Shown piece by piece: positions 21,395-58,127 of a DNA stretch of 58,235 nucleotides (positions are counted from its first letter, which is position 1; the number at the start of each line of letters is the position of its first letter). Origin of the DNA: Actinomycetota bacterium (lineage in GTDB: Bacteria; Actinomycetota; Actinomycetes; Nanopelagicales; Nanopelagicaceae); contig JAPLBA010000065.1 in assembly GCA_026393015.1 (NCBI GenBank), positions 1 to 58,235 on the forward strand, given 5' to 3'. The translations under genes were made by a program, and so were the position numbers. The notes under the pieces were generated by a model. The model ran no database searches. It saw only the letters and a list, made by a program, of their open reading frames with translations, and was not told the DNA's origin.

Positions 21395-21505
21395 AGCGCG
21401 GTGAACGCCTCGGACCTGCACCTATAAGCGTGGAAAAGAGCAGTTTTTGGTCTCCGGGCGCCTTCTCTGGGATACTTAATGCACGGAAAACCCCAACCCT
21501 AACTG

Positions 21506-21573
21506 GAACCCCAATTCGAACCCCAATTCGAACCCCAATTCGAACCCTAATTCGAACCCTAATTCGAACCCCA
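21506..21573. repeat. 12-bp tandem repeat x5.7 (gaaccccaattc / gaaccctaattc)
   Basis: Direct reading. A degenerate copy lies upstream (21488-21505). The array ends at the AAGGAG Shine-Dalgarno of the DUF3117 gene. Confidence 0.95.
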
Positions 21574-21584
21574 AGGAGTGACAT

Positions 21585-23204: not shown

Positions 23205-23818
23205 ATAGTGTTGATGCGTTCATCGAAAATTTCCGAAGTGAAGATGATGCTTTACCTGCTGCTCGAGCTCGCGCAGTAGAGGTGGGAAGTAATGAGCCCA
23301 CAGCTGCCGTGGGTGCACTATCGGCCTTCTTCGCGGAATTAATTGATGCTAGAAACGTGGTGGAAGCGCGCACTGGCGTAGGCCTTACAGCATTGTGGTT
23401 GCTACGCGGATTAGATAAAGATGCAGTGCTTACGAGCATCGATGCGGAAGCTGAGCACATTCGCCTGGCGCGTGAATCTCTTGCGGAGTACCCCACTTCG
23501 CAAATCCGGTTGATCTCTGGTGATCCACTTGAACTCCTAGGTAGGTTGACTGATGGCGCTTACGACATGGTTTGCCTGCGCCTTGATGCACGTGATCTTG
23601 CGGCTGCTATTGAGGAGTCTCATCGCCTGCTTCGGGCTGGTGGCATTCTCTTTATTTCTAATGCGTTGGGAGAAGGGAAAGTTCCTGATCCCGCACAGCG
23701 TGACGAAGTGACCATCGCAATACGTGAAGCCGGGCGCCACCTAAGAAGCGATGATCAGCGCTGGCGCACCACCCTTATCCCTGTAGGCGACGGTGTGCTG
23801 GTGGCCTTCCGTCTCTAA
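23201..23818 (+). CDS. class I SAM-dependent O-methyltransferase
   Basis: ATG 23201 overlaps the pepA stop (ATGA). The protein has a caffeoyl-CoA-OMT-like fold pattern (VEARTGVGLTALWLLRGL) and occupies the same position as the methyltransferase upstream of sigE/htrA in mycobacteria. Confidence 0.75.
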   Translation: MNSVDAFIENFRSEDDALPAARARAVEVGSNEPTAAVGALSAFFAELIDARNVVEARTGVGLTALWLLRGLDKDAVLTSIDAEAEHIRLARESLAEYPTSQIRLISGDPLELLGRLTDGAYDMVCLRLDARDLAAAIEESHRLLRAGGILFISNALGEGKVPDPAQRDEVTIAIREAGRHLRSDDQRWRTTLIPVGDGVLVAFRL

Positions 23819-23862
23819 TCTCTCCCTGATCCCCTCTAATCGTCCCTAATCCCGCCCAATAC
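23811..23862. repeat. degenerate ~10-11 bp repeat (cyctaatc core) x5
   Basis: gtctctaatc tctccctgatc ccctctaatc gtccctaatc ccgcccaata. The array starts on the methyltransferase stop codon. Confidence 0.6.
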
Positions 23863-23943: not shown

Positions 23944-25164
23944 GTGATGAACCAAATGCCAGGTGAGGAGGTTCCGTGGTGGAGCCAACCTGCGCCCACG
24001 TCAATAACTCCGGCGACCATTACTCCGGCGACAACTCCGCTCTCTCCCGCAAGACCTCAACTTCCTATTATCCTCTTACTTAGCTTGACTCTGGTTGCTG
24101 GCGTACTCGGTGGAGGCATCGGATATTTTGTGGCTCACTACTCCGACGGTCGTTCCACGCCTGACGCGCGCGCGCAATTTGCAAACGCCGCTGATGGTCA
24201 AGCGTTAACAACTTCTACCGCGACGATTGAACGCGCTCCGGGATCAATTGCTGGGATTGCAGCGGGAGTGTTGCCGTCGGTAGTTTCTATTTCGACCACC
24301 TCGAGCGCTGGTTCCGGGACTGGTTCTGGATTTGTCATTCGCTCGGATGGATACATTCTCACGAATAATCACGTGGTTGCCGACGCCGCAGATGGTGCTG
24401 GAAAGATTGCTGTGCAATTTAATGGCGGGAAGAGTGTTGCGGCTGAAATCGTCGGGCGCGATGCCACATACGATTTGGCAGTTATTAAAGTAAATATGAA
24501 AAATCTCAAGGCACTGGTGCTCGGCGATAGCGATAAAGTCGTAGTAGGCGATTCGGTGATTGCAATCGGTTCACCACTCGGCCTCACCGGTACTGTAACC
24601 ACAGGTGTGGTGAGTGCGAAGGATCGTCCAGTAAGTGCAGGAGGAGGCTCGGACGCGCAGAATTCATTTATCAATGCCATTCAAACCGACGCTGCCATCA
24701 ATCCTGGAAATTCTGGTGGACCACTTGTAGACGTTACCGGTGCTGTTATTGGTATCAACTCGGCTATTGCGTCGATGAGTTCTTCGAGAGGGCAATCTGG
24801 TTCTATTGGCTTGGGTTTTGCAATTCCAATGAATCAGGCAAAGCGAACTGCGGAACAATTGATCGCTACCGGGAAATCATCGCATCCGATTTTGGGTGTC
24901 TCACTTGATCTGCAATTTGCTGGACCTGGCGCGCGTATTTCCACCGTGCCCGGCGCGGTGGTGACCAGTGGCCCAGCAGCTGAGGCGGGTCTACTCTCTG
25001 GTGATCTCATCTTGTCGATCGACGGACGCAATGTGGCAAATGCCGAGGAACTCATTGTGGCAATTCGCTCGCACGCTCCGGGAGATAAAGTAAAGATTTC
25101 GTACATCCGCGTGAAGAAAACCATCGATGTCACAGTTACACTGGTGGCTGCTCCAGCCAATTAA
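23944..25164 (+). CDS. htrA: HtrA/DegP-family S1C serine protease with a PDZ domain
   Basis: TM anchor, catalytic motifs (TNNHVV, D, GNSGGPLV) and a C-terminal PDZ (GLLSGDLILSIDG). The start is GTG 23944 or ATG 23947. Confidence 0.85.
   Translation: MMNQMPGEEVPWWSQPAPTSITPATITPATTPLSPARPQLPIILLLSLTLVAGVLGGGIGYFVAHYSDGRSTPDARAQFANAADGQALTTSTATIERAPGSIAGIAAGVLPSVVSISTTSSAGSGTGSGFVIRSDGYILTNNHVVADAADGAGKIAVQFNGGKSVAAEIVGRDATYDLAVIKVNMKNLKALVLGDSDKVVVGDSVIAIGSPLGLTGTVTTGVVSAKDRPVSAGGGSDAQNSFINAIQTDAAINPGNSGGPLVDVTGAVIGINSAIASMSSSRGQSGSIGLGFAIPMNQAKRTAEQLIATGKSSHPILGVSLDLQFAGPGARISTVPGAVVTSGPAAEAGLLSGDLILSIDGRNVANAEELIVAIRSHAPGDKVKISYIRVKKTIDVTVTLVAAPAN
24005..24040 (+). repeat. 15-bp tandem repeat x2.4 inside the htrA 5' end (encodes ITPATITPATTP)
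   Basis: taactccggcgacca / ttactccggcgacaa / ctccgc. Confidence 0.85.
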
Positions 25165-29586: not shown

Positions 29587-29634
29587 GCCGCCTCAGTGGC
29601 CGCCTCAGTGGCCGATTCAGTGGCCGCCTCAGAT
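29587..29634. repeat. 12-bp tandem repeat x4 (gccgcctcagtg)
   Basis: Direct reading. It lies in the 346-bp gap upstream of the MgtE_N-CBS gene, inside a doubtful 70-aa ORF (29478-29690, minus strand). Confidence 0.95.
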
Positions 29635-38358: not shown

Positions 38359-38388
38359 AAATACAGGCTAGCCTTTTCCTGTGACCCC

Positions 38389-38470
38389 CAGCGAATCATC
38401 GAGCGAATCAACCAGCGAATCATCGAGTGAATCAACCAGCGAATCATCGAGTGAATCAACCAGCGAATCG
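38389..38470. repeat. 24-bp tandem repeat x3.4 (cagcgaatcatcgagygaatcaac)
   Basis: Direct reading. It lies between the divergent lipid kinase (start 38358) and the membrane-protein ATG at 38477. Confidence 0.95.
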
Positions 38471-42241: not shown

Positions 42242-42451
42242 ATGGAAACGATCTATCAGAATGTCTTTGGATGCATGTTTTGGATCCGCCGGAGAGTGGT
42301 GGAGCCGATGAAGAATTCTCGAGGTGATGTGCCCGGTTGGGTACTCGTGGTTTTGATGACCGCTGGATTAGTGACGGTGCTCTGGGCAGTGGCAGGACCA
42401 CGACTCTCGGCAATGCTCTCTAGGTCACTTGATGCGGTCTCCTCTCAATAA
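42242..42451 (+). CDS. putative Flp/pseudopilin-like small membrane protein
   Basis: A short basic leader, then G followed by one long hydrophobic helix (SRG/DVPGWVLVVLMTAGLVTVLWAVAG). It sits directly after tadC. There is no canonical G/xxxxEY motif. The start could be the internal ATG (MKNSRG...). Confidence 0.35.
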   Translation: METIYQNVFGCMFWIRRRVVEPMKNSRGDVPGWVLVVLMTAGLVTVLWAVAGPRLSAMLSRSLDAVSSQ

Positions 42452-42494
42452 GTCGGTACCGCATAAGTCGGCACCGCACAAGTCGGTACCACGC
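42450..42494. repeat. 15-bp tandem repeat x3 (aagtcggtaccgcat)
   Basis: Direct reading. It begins inside the stop codon of the pilin-like ORF and ends 12 nt before the TadE-like ATG at 42507. Confidence 0.95.
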
Positions 42495-50155: not shown

Positions 50156-50614
50156 ATGGATTCCCTGCTACTTGAAGAGCGTGAAATTCCTTGGAGTGAG
50201 ATTGATGATCTCACTGTTGATGAGGAGGGAATTGCCGCACTGCTTTCAACCGGTGAACGTTGCCAATACTCCTTCGGCACGGCGACGATACGGGACCGAA
50301 GAAGAGTTGCCCAAGCGCTACGCGAGCGAGTGATGGCCTCCATACTTATTTCGGTCACTGGCCCCGAGGAAACTCTGGTCGCCCTCAGGCGAGATGCCAG
50401 GGGTGAGGTATTTACCCGAATATCAGTGGCTGGAGAGATCTCCGAGGCTGGTCGACGCGGTGCCGAGGCGCTTGCTCTTCGACTGGCTGAGAGCGCGGGC
50501 GTGATCGATGCGCCGCTTCGATGGTCTGCCGCTCCGGGGTCTGCCACTCCGGGGTCTGCCACTCCGGGGTCTGCCTCTCCGGAGAGTTTCAGTGCAACCC
50601 CCACGCTGGGGTAG
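50156..50614 (+). CDS. hypothetical protein with a repeat-encoded (PGSAT)n C-terminus
   Basis: The ORF runs between dnaG and tRNA-Asn with no recognisable family. The start is uncertain (GTG 50084/50096 or ATG 50156). Confidence 0.35.
   Translation: MDSLLLEEREIPWSEIDDLTVDEEGIAALLSTGERCQYSFGTATIRDRRRVAQALRERVMASILISVTGPEETLVALRRDARGEVFTRISVAGEISEAGRRGAEALALRLAESAGVIDAPLRWSAAPGSATPGSATPGSASPESFSATPTLG
50524..50583. repeat. 15-bp tandem repeat x4 (gtctgccactccggg)
   Basis: Direct reading. It lies in the last ~30 codons of the hypothetical ORF, 45 bp upstream of tRNA-Asn. Confidence 0.95.
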
Positions 50615-50628
50615 GCTTCTAAGGACCT

Positions 50629-50704
50629 TCCCGTGTAGCTCAATTGGCAGAGCAGCCGGCTGTTAACCGGCAGGTTCTTGGTTCGAGTCCAAGCGCGGGA
50701 GCCA
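50629..50704 (+). tRNA. tRNA-Asn (anticodon GTT), CCA encoded
   Basis: Manual cloverleaf of 76 nt. Acceptor TCCCGTG/CGCGGGA, D stem GCTC/GAGC, anticodon stem GCCGG/CCGGC with loop CTGTTAA, T stem CTTGG/CCAAG with loop TTCGAGT, discriminator G, then CCA. Confidence 0.93.
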
Positions 50705-50821: not shown

Positions 50822-50839
50822 GTACTCAGTACTGAGTAC
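50822..50839. promoter_or_regulatory. perfect 18-bp palindrome GTACTCAGTACTGAGTAC
   Basis: The sequence equals its own reverse complement. It lies 78 bp upstream of the response-regulator ATG and overlaps the first unit of the 14-bp array. Confidence 0.6.
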
Positions 50840-50888
50840 CCGAGACTAAGTACCCGAGACTAAGTACCCGAGATTAAGTACTCGAGAA
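50833..50888. repeat. 14-bp tandem repeat x4 (taagtacccgagac)
   Basis: tgagtacccgagac / taagtacccgagac / taagtacccgagat / taagtactcgagaa. The array ends 28 nt before ATG 50917, and a GAAGGAGG Shine-Dalgarno lies in between. Confidence 0.95.
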
Positions 50889-50916: not shown

Positions 50917-51642
50917 ATGGCTGCAGTGAGTGCGACCGCACCGCTCATACTCGTGGTCGATGATGAAGATGGGGTGGCAGATCTGCTGGTCGATGCCCTC
51001 ACTCTCGGCGGCTACCGCGCACGTCGCGCACGCGATGGGCAAGAGGCGCTCCGCCTGCTACGCGAAATTGCTCCCGATGTCATCTTGCTAGATGTCAATA
51101 TGCCCGGGCTTAATGGATTTGAAGTCTTGGAACGCATTCGTGCCAAGGGAGATGACACTCCGGTGCTCTTCCTCACTGCTCGACACGAGCGCGAAGATAC
51201 CACTCGTGGATTTGTGCTTGGCGCCGATGATTACATCACCAAGCCATTTGGTCTTGAAGAATTGCTCTTGCGAGTGAAGGCCATCTTGCGTCGCACACGC
51301 AAAGAAGAGCCAGAACCAGAGGTATTGCGAAGTGGCAATCTGGAACTCCACTCAGAGAGCCACGAAGTACGGCAAGCAGGCGAGATCGTTACCCTCTCGC
51401 CGACTGAATTTCGCCTCCTTGAGTATTTGATGCTCAATCAGAAGCGCGTGCTCACTAAAGCCCAACTCTTACGAGCTGTCTGGGATATCGATTTCGAAGC
51501 TGAAACTAGCGTGGTTGACACTTATATCTCTTATCTCCGTAAGAAGCTAGATCCGCAAGGTTTGGGACTTATCCGAACTGTTCGCGGAGTTGGCTTCCAG
51601 TTGCGAGAGGTAGAAGCTGCCGCTGAAAAAGGCGCCCAGTGA
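50917..51642 (+). CDS. OmpR-family response regulator
   Basis: Receiver motifs (LVVDDE, LLDVNMPGLNG, K at ITKPF) and a winged-helix output domain (LSPTEFRLLEYLM...VDTYISYLRKKL). Confidence 0.9.
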   Translation: MAAVSATAPLILVVDDEDGVADLLVDALTLGGYRARRARDGQEALRLLREIAPDVILLDVNMPGLNGFEVLERIRAKGDDTPVLFLTARHEREDTTRGFVLGADDYITKPFGLEELLLRVKAILRRTRKEEPEPEVLRSGNLELHSESHEVRQAGEIVTLSPTEFRLLEYLMLNQKRVLTKAQLLRAVWDIDFEAETSVVDTYISYLRKKLDPQGLGLIRTVRGVGFQLREVEAAAEKGAQ

Positions 51643-51662
51643 CCACCAGTGACCACCAGTGA
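51637..51662. repeat. 10-bp unit x2.6 (cagtgaccac) at the RR/HK junction
   Basis: CAGTGA occurs three times. The first provides the RR stop (TGA 51640-51642) and the third provides the HK start (GTG 51659). Confidence 0.85.
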
Positions 51663-53939: not shown

Positions 53940-55091
53940 GTGGTTCCACTTCCGATAGCGCTGATGGTGGCACGTGCCATCTCGTTGCTGAGTCGCATCT
54001 TGCGCCAAGGAGAGGGAGCTACTCTCTCTGGCAAGGTGTTGCTCGCACTACGTCCTCGCGCGATTAGCGAATTAACACGAGGTCGCCGGGTTGTTTTAGT
54101 CAGCGGAACGAATGGTAAGACCTCAACATCGTCGATGCTCGCAGCCATGCTCGGCGAGAAGTTTTTAGTCGGCGGTAATCGAACCGGGGCAAACCTCAAC
54201 ACTGGAATTGCCGCATCGCTTGCAAGCACAAAAAAATGTACTCTCCTGATCTTCGAGGTCGATGAGCTCTATCTCCCATCGATGATGGAAGCGACAGCCC
54301 CGGAGTTGGTACTACTTCTTAATTTGAGTCGAGATCAATTACATCGCACACAAGAAGTACGCATTGTCGCTCGAAAATGGCTTGAAGCTTTCGCTGCGTT
54401 CCCCGATACGCCGGTGGTTATCGACGCTAGTGACCCATTCTTAGTCTCGGTAGTTCGAGATCACGGTCCCGTCACGCGAATGGGATTTGGAAAGAGGCCA
54501 CATCTTGATGCAGCAAGTTGCCCCACTTGTGGTGCCATGCTCGATTGGAGTGGGGCGCAATTTGCTTGCCAGAAATGTGGTTTGGGCAACTTTGCTGCAG
54601 AAGTAGAGCTCGGAGAGATGTCTGCAGTGGAACGCAATCATGCACTTGCCGGTTATGTGGCTCAGTATTTTGGGGTGCAGGATCTCGCCAAATTTTCACC
54701 ACGTGATCGCATTTCGACTCTGCTTTTGGGCGGCATCGAAATCGCCCTCCGGTTGGTCAAGAATCCATCAAGTTGGCAAGAGGGGCTGAGCTCACTCACA
54801 GATGAACCCATTATTTTGGTGGTGAACGCTCGCGGCGTTGATGGTCTCGATACTTCCTGGCTCTGGGATGTAGATTTCACGCCTTTGAAGGGACGTTATG
54901 TCGTGATTACCGGGGATCGGAAGCTTGACGCGGCATATCGAGTTCATGTTGATGGCATCGGATACTCACTTGTTGATTCGCTGCAGGGTGCGGCAATGCA
55001 GATTCAGCGAGATGGGTTCACTCGTGCACAAGCGCTCACCTCATATACCGCATTTATTGATGCCACTACCCGCGTAAAGGGTAAGCGATGA
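53940..55091 (+). CDS. murT: lipid II isoglutaminyl synthase, Mur-ligase-like subunit
   Basis: P-loop VSGTNGKTST, Cys4 ribbon CPTCG...CQKCG, and a DUF1727-like C-terminus, followed by gatD. The start is GTG 53940 or ATG 53964. Confidence 0.85.
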   Translation: MVPLPIALMVARAISLLSRILRQGEGATLSGKVLLALRPRAISELTRGRRVVLVSGTNGKTSTSSMLAAMLGEKFLVGGNRTGANLNTGIAASLASTKKCTLLIFEVDELYLPSMMEATAPELVLLLNLSRDQLHRTQEVRIVARKWLEAFAAFPDTPVVIDASDPFLVSVVRDHGPVTRMGFGKRPHLDAASCPTCGAMLDWSGAQFACQKCGLGNFAAEVELGEMSAVERNHALAGYVAQYFGVQDLAKFSPRDRISTLLLGGIEIALRLVKNPSSWQEGLSSLTDEPIILVVNARGVDGLDTSWLWDVDFTPLKGRYVVITGDRKLDAAYRVHVDGIGYSLVDSLQGAAMQIQRDGFTRAQALTSYTAFIDATTRVKGKR

Positions 55092-55828
55092 TGAGTGCGT
55101 TGCAGATTGTGGTCATTCACCCCGAGCTACTTGGGACCTATGGAGACATTGGGAATGCGCGCATTTTGGCGCACCGGGCACGAATGCGCGGAATACCTGC
55201 GGAGATTATTTTCACCCCACATAATCAACCCTTACCTACCATGGGTGATATTTACTTATTAGGTGGCGGCGAGGATCGTGCGCAAATCGCTAGCGTTGAG
55301 GCGCTGCGATCTTCGCTGGGCGTGTTGGGCGGTGCACTCGATCGCGGCGCGCAACTCTTTGCAGTCTGTGCTGGCTTACAAATTCTTGGCGAATCTTTCC
55401 CAGGAGTGAATGGAGAAATTATCGCTGGTCTTGGAATGGTCCCGATTGTTTCGCTACCTGGAAGTGATCGCATCGTGGGCGAGGTACTTGTGAAATCTGA
55501 TCTCTTTACCGAGCCGCTGACGGGTTTTGAAAACCATCGTGGGCGTACGGACCTGGGTGGCCTGAGGCCACTCGGCCGAGTTCTCGTAGGAGGGGGAAAT
55601 GGTGGGGCGGCGATTGCGATCAATGAACGAGTCGATGGCTTCATAGCAGGCACCATCTTGGCGACCTATCTCCATGGCCCCGCCCTCGCGCGAAACCCCG
55701 TTCTCGCCGACCACTTGCTCTCCGAGGTAGTGGGCGCCCTAACGAAAGTGCCACAAGGTGAAGAGATTGCCGAACTCCTCGCGTTCGAACGGCGAAGGGC
55801 GCTGAGCGCTGCTAATTTTGGCAAATAA
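55088..55828 (+). CDS. gatD: lipid II isoglutaminyl synthase, glutaminase subunit (CobQ/GatD-like)
   Basis: ATGA overlap with murT. It has the type-1 amidotransferase nucleophile motif (FAVCAGLQILG) and a C-terminal His (YLHGP). Confidence 0.85.
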   Translation: MMSALQIVVIHPELLGTYGDIGNARILAHRARMRGIPAEIIFTPHNQPLPTMGDIYLLGGGEDRAQIASVEALRSSLGVLGGALDRGAQLFAVCAGLQILGESFPGVNGEIIAGLGMVPIVSLPGSDRIVGEVLVKSDLFTEPLTGFENHRGRTDLGGLRPLGRVLVGGGNGGAAIAINERVDGFIAGTILATYLHGPALARNPVLADHLLSEVVGALTKVPQGEEIAELLAFERRRALSAANFGK

Positions 55829-55918
55829 TCCAGATCTCTCGCAGAATTCTCACAGGCAGCTTTTGCATAATAATTTTAATATTTGAGTGAACTAGCAGAT
55901 GTAGTGAAGGAGCAATCA

Positions 55919-57349
55919 GTGAGCGCAGAAAAGCTAGTGGAGTCGGACTCTTTGATGAGTCCACCGAGCGGCTTTCGCCGAATATTTAGCAGAGGCGCAG
56001 GTAACGGCGCCAAGGTCGGCGCGGGATTTCTGGTGGGGGCTCTGCTCGTGGGCGGGGGCGCATTTGCCGCCAACACGATTTCTTCTTCGGATTCCATTAA
56101 TGCCTGTGTGAATAACACCACTCGAGTCATCACTATTGCGCCGACGAGTGGCAAGTGCCCCACGGGTACTCGCGCGCTCACGTGGAATATTGCTGGACCG
56201 CAAGGCCCAGTAGGCCCAGTGGGCCCTGCAGGTGCTGCGGGCGCAAACGGCGCACCGGGTCCAGCTGGTTCAGCTGGTCTAGCTGGAGCAACAGGTGCGC
56301 AAGGTTCGGCAGGAGTGGCAGGGAATTCGGGAAGTGCAGGGAGTGCGGGAAGTGCAGGGAGTGCGGGAAGTACGGGAAGTACCAGCAACTCGAACACTTC
56401 ATTCAGCGTGACCTCGATTGCAAATGCTCTCCTGCCTTCGGTGGTCAGTATTGCAATCACTACTCGGACGGGTAGTGTGGCCGGATCTGGTTCCATCATT
56501 AAGTCGAGTGCAACTTCCACATTTATTTTGACGAATAACCACGTTATTTCAGGCGCTACAAAGGTCACCGTCGAGTTAGAAGATGGCACCGAACTTGAGG
56601 GCCAAATTGTTGGCTTTGATGTTGCCTACGATCTTGCGGTTGTGATGGTCAATCAAGGGAATCTGCCCGTGGCAAACTTCGGGGATTCTTCAAAGGTTGT
56701 TATTGGTGAGCCGGTAGTAGCAATCGGATCTCCACTTGGTTTATCCGGAACAGTCACGAGCGGCATCATCTCCTCACTCGATCGTCCGGTCACTACCGGA
56801 GGTACGGGATCGGAGACGTACATCAACGCCTTACAAACTGATGCCGCGGTGAATCCAGGAAATTCAGGTGGTCCGTTGGTTAACGCCCAGAGCCTGATCA
56901 TTGGCGTAAATAGCGCAATCGCTTCATTGGGTAGCGCTACTTCCTCCACCGGAAGTATTGGGTTGGGTTTTGCAATTCCGATCAATCAAGCCAAACGGAT
57001 TTCAAACGAAATAATTGCAACTGCAAAGATCGTGGGAACAAAGGTCACTTTGGCGGGAGTATCAACCCGGCCCCTTCTTGGGGTCTCCTTCGATACAAGT
57101 TACGCGGGGTCTGGCGCGAAGATCTACGCGTTGACGGCTGGCGGTGGGGCGGAGGTGGCCGGCATTCCAGCCAACAGTGTGATTAAGGCGATCGATGGGA
57201 AGAGCACGAAAGATAACATCGAGGCGATCGTGCGCATTCGCTCGTATGACCCAGGTGCCAGCATCAAAGTCACCGTTGACCTGCCAAACTCTGGTGGCAG
57301 CCGGACCTTTACTGTCACGCTCGGATCGGCTCCGTCTAATAGCGCCTAG
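55919..57349 (+). CDS. membrane-anchored HtrA-family S1C protease with a collagen-like G-X-Y stalk and a PDZ domain
   Basis: AAGGAG lies 6 nt upstream of GTG 55919; the track ORF opens at TTG 55883. Order of elements: TM helix, Cys-x16-Cys module, 21 G-X-Y triplets, protease motifs (TNNHVI, GNSGGPLV), PDZ (AGIPANSVIKAIDG). Confidence 0.8.
   Translation: MSAEKLVESDSLMSPPSGFRRIFSRGAGNGAKVGAGFLVGALLVGGGAFAANTISSSDSINACVNNTTRVITIAPTSGKCPTGTRALTWNIAGPQGPVGPVGPAGAAGANGAPGPAGSAGLAGATGAQGSAGVAGNSGSAGSAGSAGSAGSTGSTSNSNTSFSVTSIANALLPSVVSIAITTRTGSVAGSGSIIKSSATSTFILTNNHVISGATKVTVELEDGTELEGQIVGFDVAYDLAVVMVNQGNLPVANFGDSSKVVIGEPVVAIGSPLGLSGTVTSGIISSLDRPVTTGGTGSETYINALQTDAAVNPGNSGGPLVNAQSLIIGVNSAIASLGSATSSTGSIGLGFAIPINQAKRISNEIIATAKIVGTKVTLAGVSTRPLLGVSFDTSYAGSGAKIYALTAGGGAEVAGIPANSVIKAIDGKSTKDNIEAIVRIRSYDPGASIKVTVDLPNSGGSRTFTVTLGSAPSNSA
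56195..56383 (+). repeat. collagen-like region: 21 uninterrupted G-X-Y codon triplets, with a near-perfect 9/18-bp DNA repeat at 56321-56382
   Basis: GPQ GPV GPV GPA GAA GAN GAP GPA GSA GLA GAT GAQ GSA GVA GNS GSA GSA GSA GSA GST GST. The DNA unit gggaagtgcagggagtgc is repeated exactly. Confidence 0.9.
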
Positions 57350-57378
57350 GTCGCCTAGGTCGTCTAGGTCGTCTAGGT
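57343..57378. repeat. 9-bp tandem repeat x4 (cgyctaggt), each carrying an in-frame TAG
   Basis: The first unit contains the protease stop codon (TAG 57347-57349). Confidence 0.95.
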
Positions 57379-57442
57379 TATTTGGGTTATTGGGTTATTG
57401 GGTGATTGGGTTATTGGGTTATTGGGTTATTGGGTTATTGGG
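57379..57442. repeat. 8-bp tandem repeat x8 (ttattggg)
   Basis: It directly abuts the 9-bp array. The last unit contains the stop codon (TAA, minus strand, 57435-57437) of the convergent DUF1638 gene. Confidence 0.95.
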
Positions 57443-58112
57443 TAGCGCGCAGTAGTAGCGCCAACTGACGTTCCAGGCCGATAGTTCCGACCACTTCGAT
57501 TTCTAGTGGCAGGCCAATTGCCTCCGCTCCTTGAATCGCAAGTGCGCGAAGTTCGTCAGTGGGCTGTTGGGCGAGCCAAAGCACGCGGCGGTAGTGGGCA
57601 AAGTAATCCGGGCGCAGTTCAGGGTAGCGGTCTAAGCCAAGTTCTACGATCACTGATCGGTAAAACGAACGTACGAGATAATCGGTGAGGTAGTAGGTGC
57701 CGGGTTCTTCTTCCATGATTTCGGAAATGCGCTCTGGAGATGCAAAGACGTCGTAGCAATGAGCGCCAGCGAGCCGAGGAATATTGAACTCCTCAACGAC
57801 TCCGTCAAGCGCACCGTAAGTACCACAATCTGCGTACGCGATTGCCACACGCTTATGTGCGGAAATAACATCGGGGAGTAATCCGCGTACTGTGCCGGCA
57901 ATCTTCTCTGGGTGATTATGTAGGAGCGGGGGGAGCGGGTAGATCTTCAGTGACCATCCGCGCCGTTCACTTATTTCCGATATTTCCGTAGCGAGCGCAC
58001 CGCAGGCCACCACTGCCCACTCCTTCACGCTGCTCTCCATACGAGCGCTGCTCTCCATACGAGCGCTGCTCTCCATACGAGCGCTGCTCTCCATACGAGC
58101 GCTGCTCTCCAT
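57435..58112 (-). CDS. DUF1638-like protein with a reiterated (MESSAR)n N-terminus
   Basis: Core pattern VVACGAL...PPLLHNHPEKI...IAYADCGTYGALD...RLAGAHCYDVF resembles DUF1638. Five in-frame ATGs are supplied by an 18-bp repeat, so the true start is undetermined. Confidence 0.6.
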   Translation of the reverse strand: MESSARMESSARMESSARMESSARMESSVKEWAVVACGALATEISEISERRGWSLKIYPLPPLLHNHPEKIAGTVRGLLPDVISAHKRVAIAYADCGTYGALDGVVEEFNIPRLAGAHCYDVFASPERISEIMEEEPGTYYLTDYLVRSFYRSVIVELGLDRYPELRPDYFAHYRRVLWLAQQPTDELRALAIQGAEAIGLPLEIEVVGTIGLERQLALLLRATQ

Positions 58113-58118
58113 ACGCGC
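58029..58118. repeat. 18-bp tandem repeat x5 (minus-strand unit GCTCGTATGGAGAGCAGC)
   Basis: Direct reading. Each unit contains an ATG and a GGAGAG element. Confidence 0.95.
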
Positions 58119-58127
58119 GTCGCGCTC

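Follow-up and report, generated by a model that had tools for sequence, protein, structure and literature searches.

A PepD-type serine protease with a two-cysteine and collagen-like N-terminal cassette in a Nanopelagicaceae contig

Background

Whether the run of glycine-X-Y (G-X-Y) triplets that precedes an HtrA-type serine protease forms a collagen-like stalk, and what such a stalk would connect, is the question raised by the gene at positions 55919-57349 of contig JAPLBA010000065.1 (assembly GCA_026393015.1, Nanopelagicaceae). The whole stretch of DNA that was analysed, 58,235 nucleotides long, is called the window below. An earlier note on this DNA had read the gene product as a protease fused to a stalk of 21 triplets, which could both trimerise the enzyme and hold it at a fixed distance from the membrane. 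From the comparisons reported here, the window protein is best described as a PepD-type protease bearing a widespread, uncatalogued N-terminal cassette made of a two-Cys module and a collagen-like run, because the module was found in 1,172 protein clusters, mostly non-protease, and is without a public model. HtrA proteases and bacterial collagen-like proteins are each well known; what appears to be new is their conserved combination, together with the uncatalogued module. The explanation that we consider best, with a probability of roughly 0.55, is an exported protease whose cassette provides a triple-helical stalk between a tip module and a trimeric head.

Results and discussion

The collagen-like run of the window protein

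The gene and its parts are as follows.

55919-57349, forward strand: whole gene of the HtrA/PepD-type protease with its putative collagen stalk, a 476-aa precursor; GTG start, TAG stop (open reading frame (ORF) and translation).
55919-56011, forward strand: positively charged N-region (residues 1-31) of the export signal, containing F-R-R-I-F-S-R (translation).
56012-56068, forward strand: hydrophobic segment KVGAGFLVGALLVGGG, residues 32-50, ending A-F-A; more probably a cleavable Sec signal peptide than a signal anchor.
56090-56194, forward strand: two-Cys beta-module DSINACVNNTTRVITIAPTSGKCPTGTRALTWNIA, residues 58-92; C63 at 56105-56107, C80 at 56156-56158, W89 at 56183-56185.
56195-56266, forward strand: first 8 G-X-Y triplets, beside the module, with all 6 Pro of the stalk.
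56267-56383, forward strand: last 13 G-X-Y triplets, beside the protease, Ser/Ala-rich, with no Pro and no charged residue.
56384-56407, forward strand: Ser/Asn-rich linker SNSNTSFS, residues 156-163, from the last triplet to the first protease helix.
56408-57022, forward strand: S1C (HtrA/PepD-type) protease domain; H208 at 56540-56542, D238 at 56630-56632, S316 at 56864-56866.
57023-57058, forward strand: insertion of 12 residues, AKIVGTKVTLAG, that separates protease and PDZ; a small beta-hairpin in the model.
57059-57334, forward strand: divergent PDZ domain, residues 381-472.

The protease, the G-X-Y run and the PDZ domain lie in one ORF, as the earlier note had claimed; the ORF itself, Pfam, an alignment with PepD and an AlphaFold2 (AF2) model together confirmed this. 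The run occupies residues 93-155 (nt 56195-56383) and contains 21 uninterrupted triplets, in the order GPQ GPV GPV GPA GAA GAN GAP GPA GSA GLA GAT GAQ GSA GVA GNS GSA GSA GSA GSA GST GST. It scored 35.9 bits with Pfam Collagen (PF01391, cut-off 27.2), which bears out the 63-residue run first noticed, and the NCBIfam Scl and Lcl models matched it weakly. As Gly makes up 15% of the protein, 21 of them would fall in phase by chance with a probability of about 6e-18. The exact 18-bp repeat reported at 56329-56364 (two copies) was read directly in the DNA and was also found by Tandem Repeats Finder, as 3.0 copies of 18 bp at 56318-56371. A caveat had been raised that the distal half of the stalk is rich in Ser and Ala, has little Pro and is without charge pairs. 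The composition and the missing charge pairs were borne out, and Pro is not just scarce in the last 13 triplets, it is absent.

The two-Cys module

A two-Cys module had been placed ahead of the stalk, and this was confirmed at residues 58-92. C63, C80 and W89 are invariant in the protease family, and alignment A1 of the module shows A, C, C, W and G without variation. In the AF2 model the module has three strands, with a predicted local distance difference test (pLDDT) score of about 75 when the full-length protein is modelled and 82 when the module is modelled by itself. It has no match among the models of Pfam and NCBIfam, and a profile search of PDB sequences with the module found nothing. 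When the modelled module was compared with the PDB by Foldseek, there was no significant match, the best being MbtH-like three-stranded sheets (E 1.6). A phage tail-fibre origin was also considered and gained no evidence, as tblastn of the module against phage genomes gave only chance-level matches (E >= 3). No paper on the module was found in the literature, although such absence is no proof.

The two invariant Cys may form a disulfide, which could be intrachain or interchain. With few exceptions among the modules inspected, the G-X-Y run directly adjoins the module, and the first triplets (GPxGPxG) are the best-conserved part of the run, both in the protease family and in the other proteins that carry the cassette. 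Since the best-conserved triplets are those beside the module, this suggests that the module registers or nucleates a triple helix from its N-terminal side.

Distribution of the cassette beyond the protease family

Profile A1, which covers 45 columns (the two-Cys module and two triplets), was searched against 1.84 billion representative proteins and retrieved 1,172 protein clusters at E <= 1e-3. The best 150 of the 1,172 matches were inspected. Among them only P0111, at full length, and the N-terminal fragments P0122 and P0123 belonged to the protease family. The module pattern was carried by 145 of the 149 non-family matches inspected, and the GNSGG protease motif by none (0/149). Most of these cassette proteins had 100-320 residues, and the module lay at positions 10-120. 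Their consensus, which follows an N-terminal hydrophobic signal, was h-x-[AG]-C-[VY]...C...W-[NS]-x-x-G-P-x-G, and, a few modules excepted, 2-34 G-X-Y triplets followed, starting exactly three residues past the Trp. The window protein has the same arrangement: an N-terminal signal, then C-x(15-17)-C...W-[NS]-x-x-G, then G-X-Y in phase.

Seven members with longer runs were compared with Pfam Collagen. All of them matched, six of the seven above the cut-off, while P0133 scored 26.9 against 27.2 bits. Named members of the set include WP_220504341.1, annotated as 'collagen-like protein [Microbispora sp. H13382]', and HEY3907328.1, a hypothetical protein from a Streptosporangiaceae metagenome-assembled genome (MAG). 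P0121, P0124, P0175 and P0202 are large actinobacterial NHL-like beta-propeller proteins in which the module occurs two to three times per chain, each internal copy being followed by 2-4 triplets ahead of a propeller block. A PDB search with the C-terminal head of the cassette protein P0146 returned nothing. Profile A3, built from the non-protease modules, gave only 9 short matches in a word-indexed protein search, whose prefilter is ill-suited to a 43-residue profile.

The protease and PDZ domains

The claim of a complete S1C core followed by a PDZ domain was upheld. The protease domain scored 103.6 bits with Pfam Trypsin_2, and H208, D238 and S316 were invariant in an alignment of 46 sequences. 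Residues 163-472 aligned with M. tuberculosis PepD (PDB 1Y8T/2Z9I) at E 1e-57. In the AF2 model the pLDDT was mostly above 90 over protease and PDZ, and the best structural match by Foldseek was 2Z9I, with a TM-score of 0.91 and 45% identity over residues 163-472. The Pfam score of the PDZ domain (PDZ_6, 17.2 bits) lies below the cut-off of 27. Judged by sequence and model, the domain is real despite this score, because the PepD alignment reaches residue 472 and the AF2 model matches 2Z9I. The insertion AKIVGTKVTLAG, with predicted hairpin strands at 370-372 and 375-378, corresponds to a gap in both PepD and the paralogue described below, and is present in only part of the family.

The protein did not reach the cut-offs of the NCBIfam equivalogs for HtrA, DegP, DegQ, DegS and mycobacterial HtrA: at best it scored 227.5 bits with TIGR02037 (cut-off 416) and 189 bits with SerProtHtrAMycob (cut-off 800). 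On these scores it is a member of the HtrA superfamily outside every named NCBIfam equivalog. Judged from its conserved residues, the gene product is an exported PepD/HtrA-type serine protease with intact catalytic residues, and by homology to PepD and HtrA its role would be extracytoplasmic protein quality control or envelope proteolysis. The basic unit of HtrA proteases is a trimer built from protease domains; by homology, we infer that the head of the window protein is trimeric as well.

The protease family and variation in run length

The protein search listed 120 homologues, of which 119 were full-length and shared 50-92% identity with the window protein. All of these 119 had a hydrophobic N-terminal segment, the C-x(15-17)-C...W-N-x-x pattern, a G-X-Y run and the protease. 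The Gly phase was unbroken within their runs, and run length ranged from 3 to 21 triplets, so that the proposed check, namely that orthologues keep the phase while the triplet number varies, was passed. The mode was 4-5 triplets, most members had 4-7, and the 21 of the window protein were the longest. The earlier note had estimated the stalk at about 18 nm. At 0.29 nm per residue, the rise generally known for the collagen helix, 21 triplets would give this length, but the figure holds for the window's lineage only and the usual 4-7 triplets would give about 3.5-6 nm.

Among 59 distinct runs of the family, X was Pro in 34% of triplets (34-39% across counts), and Y was Ala in 29%, Thr in 19% and Gln in 18% (Gln 18-24% across counts). 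Pro at X with Gln, Ala or Thr at Y is the pattern of bacterial collagen-like sequences. Relatives with 78-92% identity, from independent assemblies, had 10-17 triplets, and with the window the clade spans 10-21. When the stalk DNA of the window was aligned with that of two related loci (L001 and L002), every indel was a multiple of 9 bp, those relative to L001 being 9, 9 and 27 bp. The largest indel relative to L001, and most of the sequence missing in L002, fell in the Ser/Ala-rich part beside the protease. The suggested slippage expansion and variable stalk length are borne out by the 9-bp indels and by the runs of 10-21 triplets in the clade.

Family members came from 'Candidatus Nanopelagicaceae' MAGs and from the complete 1.55-Mb genome CP015606.1, and include acI relatives; Nanopelagicaceae and Planktophila-type (acI) genomes are both represented. 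They bear automatic names only, namely 'putative serine protease PepD', 'S1-C subfamily serine protease' or 'trypsin-like peptidase domain-containing protein'. The precomputed Pfam annotation of the longest-stalk members already lists PF01391 and PF13365, and no curated family covering the combination of collagen and HtrA was found in Pfam or NCBIfam. In a genome scan with the protease, 77 of the 80 loci recovered were ordinary HtrA paralogues without the cassette, and the other three were L001-L003. The architecture had been thought undescribed. No paper on a collagen-like HtrA was found, an absence that proves nothing by itself, and the sole paper found to join 'collagen-like' and 'Nanopelagicales' concerns phage proteins; the layout is not peculiar to this gene, however, as the whole acI-type protease family shares it.

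Export signal

In the window protein the hydrophobic segment ends GGG-A-F-A. An A-x-A motif was present 4-22 residues upstream of the first Cys in 120 of 120 family members, and in the members that were read it formed the end of the hydrophobic core, mostly after GG(G). The "TM helix" of the earlier note may thus be a cleavable signal peptide. In the family alignment F37, G40, A48 and A50 were invariant, and G45 and G47 were at least 90% conserved. The acI orthologues have N-termini of 24-27 residues with a hydrophobic core of about 15, for example MKSTVAK-MGASFLAGALIVGGG-AYA|A and MHSRVK-IAAAFVAGTLVAGGS-AIA|A. A short N-terminus with such a core is what a cleaved Sec signal peptide classically looks like. 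Cassette proteins outside the protease family, e.g. P0258 and P0127, likewise have N-terminal signal segments that look cleavable. From these patterns, the signal peptide is probably cleaved. If so, the stalk is no measure of distance from the membrane, and the two-Cys module would be a free tip.

Two other export routes were considered and rejected. A Tat signal was taken to need a conserved S/T-R-R-x-F-L-K motif adjoining the hydrophobic region. A Tat-like S-G-F-R-R-I-F-S-R is present in the N-region of the protease at 55967-55987 (residues 17-23); it is common to the window protein, P0001, P0003 and P0007, has R-Q in P0006 and is absent from the acI orthologues. The Tat reading was dismissed because R-R-x-F occurs only in the window's clade and R-R-I-F-S-R sits 11 residues before the hydrophobic core. 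A lipobox was defined as [LVI][ASTVI][GAS]C right where the hydrophobic region of the signal peptide ends; I-N-A-C resembles one but was rejected, since 12 polar residues separate it from the hydrophobic core and it falls within a predicted beta-strand.

Proposed mechanism and its rivals

In the explanation that we favour, the run grew to 21 triplets in the window's lineage by slippage of 9-bp and 18-bp units. The three chains of the HtrA trimer would wind their G-X-Y runs into a parallel triple-helical stalk, so that the molecule would consist of tip module, stalk and trimeric protease head. The helix would be likeliest in the Pro-rich triplets next to the module, while the (GSA)n-like last 13 triplets beside the protease might be marginally helical or act as a flexible hinge. 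The stalk would set the reach of the protease from whatever holds the N-terminal end. With an uncleaved signal this holder would be the membrane; with a cleaved signal, which is slightly favoured, it would be whatever partner or wall component the two-Cys module binds.

A number of observations weigh against a triple-helical stalk behind a cleaved signal. As regards the helix, there is no charged residue among the 63 residues of the stalk, and its 6 Pro are all in the first 8 triplets; bacteria are without prolyl hydroxylation, and bacterial collagens without hydroxyproline depend on Pro and charge pairs for stability. Most runs of the family, with 4-7 triplets, are too short for a free-standing triple helix. 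The AF2 pLDDT was below 50 at residues 93-159, in a monomer model that cannot address a homotrimeric helix. On sequence grounds the first triplets could even be part of the module's own fold, because the internal modules of the propeller proteins are followed by only 2-4 triplets. The run might then be a disordered flexible tether with no helix, its periodicity coming from 9-bp slippage added to a Pro-Gly segment of the module fold. Such a tether would agree with the low pLDDT, with the (GSA)n-like last 13 triplets, with the family mode of 4-5 triplets, with cassette proteins that have just 2-4 triplets, also internally, and with the 9-bp and 18-bp DNA repeats, as slippage by 9-bp units preserves the phase automatically. 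We nevertheless consider it unlikely. The phase is kept at 50% protein identity, in runs that differ from each other, show no evident internal repetition and vary in their Gly codons. The compositions at X and Y differ in the collagen-like manner (Pro at X; Gln, Thr and Ala at Y), which a linker born of slippage does not predict. In 145 unrelated cassette proteins G-X-Y triplets, up to 34 of them uninterrupted, stand right after nearly every module, and the run of the window protein passes the Pfam Collagen cut-off. The short exact DNA repeat within the run might also point to an artefact of assembly or annotation, or to a decaying gene. This is scarcely credible, given a frame that is intact from the Shine-Dalgarno site to the stop, an invariant catalytic triad and core, 10-17 triplets at the same place in independent assemblies, and a repeat array of 54 bp that fits inside one sequencing read.

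As regards the signal, the hydrophobic segment shows more conservation than is usual in a signal peptide, F37 and G40 being invariant, and the spacing of its Gly residues resembles a helix-packing motif. An uncleaved signal anchor would make the protein a type-II membrane protein; the triple-helical stalk would then keep the protease trimer about 18 nm out from the membrane, inside the wall or past it. The segment is uncharged over 19 residues and follows a positively charged N-region; the conservation of F37, G40, G45 and G47, with small-xxx-small spacing, resembles that of a functional helix, and mycobacterial HtrA and PepD are predicted to be membrane-anchored. Set against this are the GG(G)-A-x-A ending of all 120 members, which combines a helix breaker with the -3/-1 rule, the acI N-termini and their cores of about 15 residues, which look like cleaved Sec signals, and the cleavable-looking signals ahead of the cassette in many other proteins (P0258 and P0127 among them). 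In most orthologues, moreover, the spacer would measure 3-6 nm only. An anchor is therefore a real possibility, to which we give somewhat less than even odds.

A further extension of the triple-helical stalk is more speculative and, in our view, rather doubtful. The two-Cys module would be a domain in its own right, so far unrecognised, by which the collagen helices of bacteria are trimerised, nucleated or anchored. The acI protease family would be a collectin-like enzyme in which a disulfide-capped stalk of evolvable length presents the HtrA trimer at a defined reach, in the envelope of the commonest bacteria of fresh water.

Gene start and surroundings of the protease gene

The interval 55919-57349 was taken as the gene because AAGGAG at 55907-55912 lies 6 nt ahead of the GTG at 55919 and because homologue P0003 has an ATG at the position equivalent to this GTG. 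The reading frame is unbroken from the Shine-Dalgarno site and start through to the stop. ORFs on the antisense strand across the stalk repeat were dismissed as by-products of composition, and a scan for promoters and terminators gave nothing above chance. The spacer between the protease and a convergent DUF1638 gene (57343-57443) is filled by two back-to-back tandem arrays. The first is CGCCTAGGT x4, which holds the TAG stop of the protease and three further in-frame TAGs; the second is GGTTATTG x8.4.

Two neighbouring features and one distant one complete the picture of the locus.

53940-55828, forward strand: upstream neighbours murT (53940-55091) and gatD (55088-55828); Pfam MurT_C/Mur_ligase_M and GATase_3.
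23944-25164, forward strand: paralogous ordinary HtrA with a transmembrane anchor and no cassette; 46% identity over protease and PDZ.

The order murT-gatD-protease-convergent DUF1638 recurred in L001 and L002. It was also found in the Nanopelagicaceae MAG L082, with a CopD/CtaG gene between murT-gatD and the protease and other genes interposed. In CP015606.1 (L081) dnaG lies upstream of the protease, and L003 is without murT-gatD. Because the order recurs in L001, L002 and L082, the protease gene is, by gene order, an orthologue at a conserved position. As murT-gatD concern peptidoglycan amidation, this neighbourhood fits an envelope role, but is no proof of it.

The paralogue does share the protease/PDZ part, at 46% identity, as had been noticed. 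It has a cytoplasmic Pro/Thr-rich N-terminus, a transmembrane helix of 25 residues and a canonical PDZ domain (PDZ_2, 56 bits). The Pro/Thr linker that had been placed at the same position as the stalk is in fact this N-terminal stretch, which precedes the transmembrane helix. The NCBIfam model closest to the paralogue was mycobacterial HtrA, at 271.7 bits (below the cut-off of 800).

Elsewhere in the window, an 18-bp array of 5.1 copies at 58028-58119 encodes MESSAR x4 where the DUF1638 ORF (57435-58112, minus strand) nominally begins, and the true start of DUF1638 is probably downstream of this array. Short tandem arrays (period 10-24 bp, 2-7 copies) occur across the window, mostly at gene ends and in intergenic spacers: 21495-21574, 23813-23853, 29587-29632, 38388-38469, 42448-42490, 50523-50582, 50831-50887 and 51636-51662. 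Such a density of tandem arrays is unusual for a compact genome. The sole Rfam match in the window was a tRNA gene at 50629-50701.

Significance and comparison with known systems

What is surprising here is a protease with a collagen-type stalk conserved across an abundant lineage, the acI bacteria being among the most abundant bacteria of fresh water, and a module without annotation that goes with G-X-Y runs in over 1,000 clusters. If the triple helix is real, this would be a natural enzyme on a bacterial collagen stalk whose length is tuned by slippage of a simple repeat, and it would add to HtrA biology a new way of positioning a protease. Recombinant collagen work relies on few trimerisation domains, e.g. 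the Scl2 V domain and foldon, and the two-Cys module is a candidate new folding or registration domain for bacterial collagen work. If the run is only a flexible tether, the case reduces to a widespread, unannotated N-terminal module and a lineage-specific expansion of a linker.

Collectins, ficolins, C1q, SR-A/MARCO, collagens XIII and XVII and ColQ-tailed acetylcholinesterase are working analogies for the proposed design: in them a collagen stalk leads from a Cys-containing N-terminal segment or membrane anchor to a trimeric head, globular or enzymatic, which is thereby kept at a distance. The window protein has no sequence relationship to collectins, ficolins, C1q, the membrane collagens or ColQ, and its enzyme and stalk are one polypeptide. 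M. tuberculosis PepD (Rv0983) and HtrA (Rv1223) are like it in combining an S1C protease, an intact triad and a single PDZ domain with an N-terminal export segment. Unlike the window protein, these two and the paralogue in the window have neither a two-Cys module nor G-X-Y triplets between anchor and protease, and PepD is without the extra 12-residue hairpin before the PDZ domain. The cassette proteins WP_220504341.1 and HEY3907328.1 share the cassette; in place of a protease, such proteins have at their C-terminal end small globular domains without annotation or NHL-like beta-propellers.

Among bacterial collagen-like proteins, BclA has an attachment domain at its N-terminus, a trimerising domain at its C-terminus and, between them, a collagen-like region whose triplet number is strain-specific (PMC10470788). 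BclA of B. anthracis and Scl1/Scl2 of Streptococcus thus resemble the window protein in layout and in length variation, to which the 10-21 triplets of the window's clade at 78-92% identity correspond. The N-terminal module of the window protein has no relationship to the N-terminal domain of BclA or to the V domain of Scl, with no family or PDB match, and unlike BclA and Scl the protein has no LPXTG motif and no exosporium context; its triple helix is putative. The heads differ as well, being a C1q-like or adhesin domain in BclA and Scl and an HtrA protease with a PDZ domain in the window protein.

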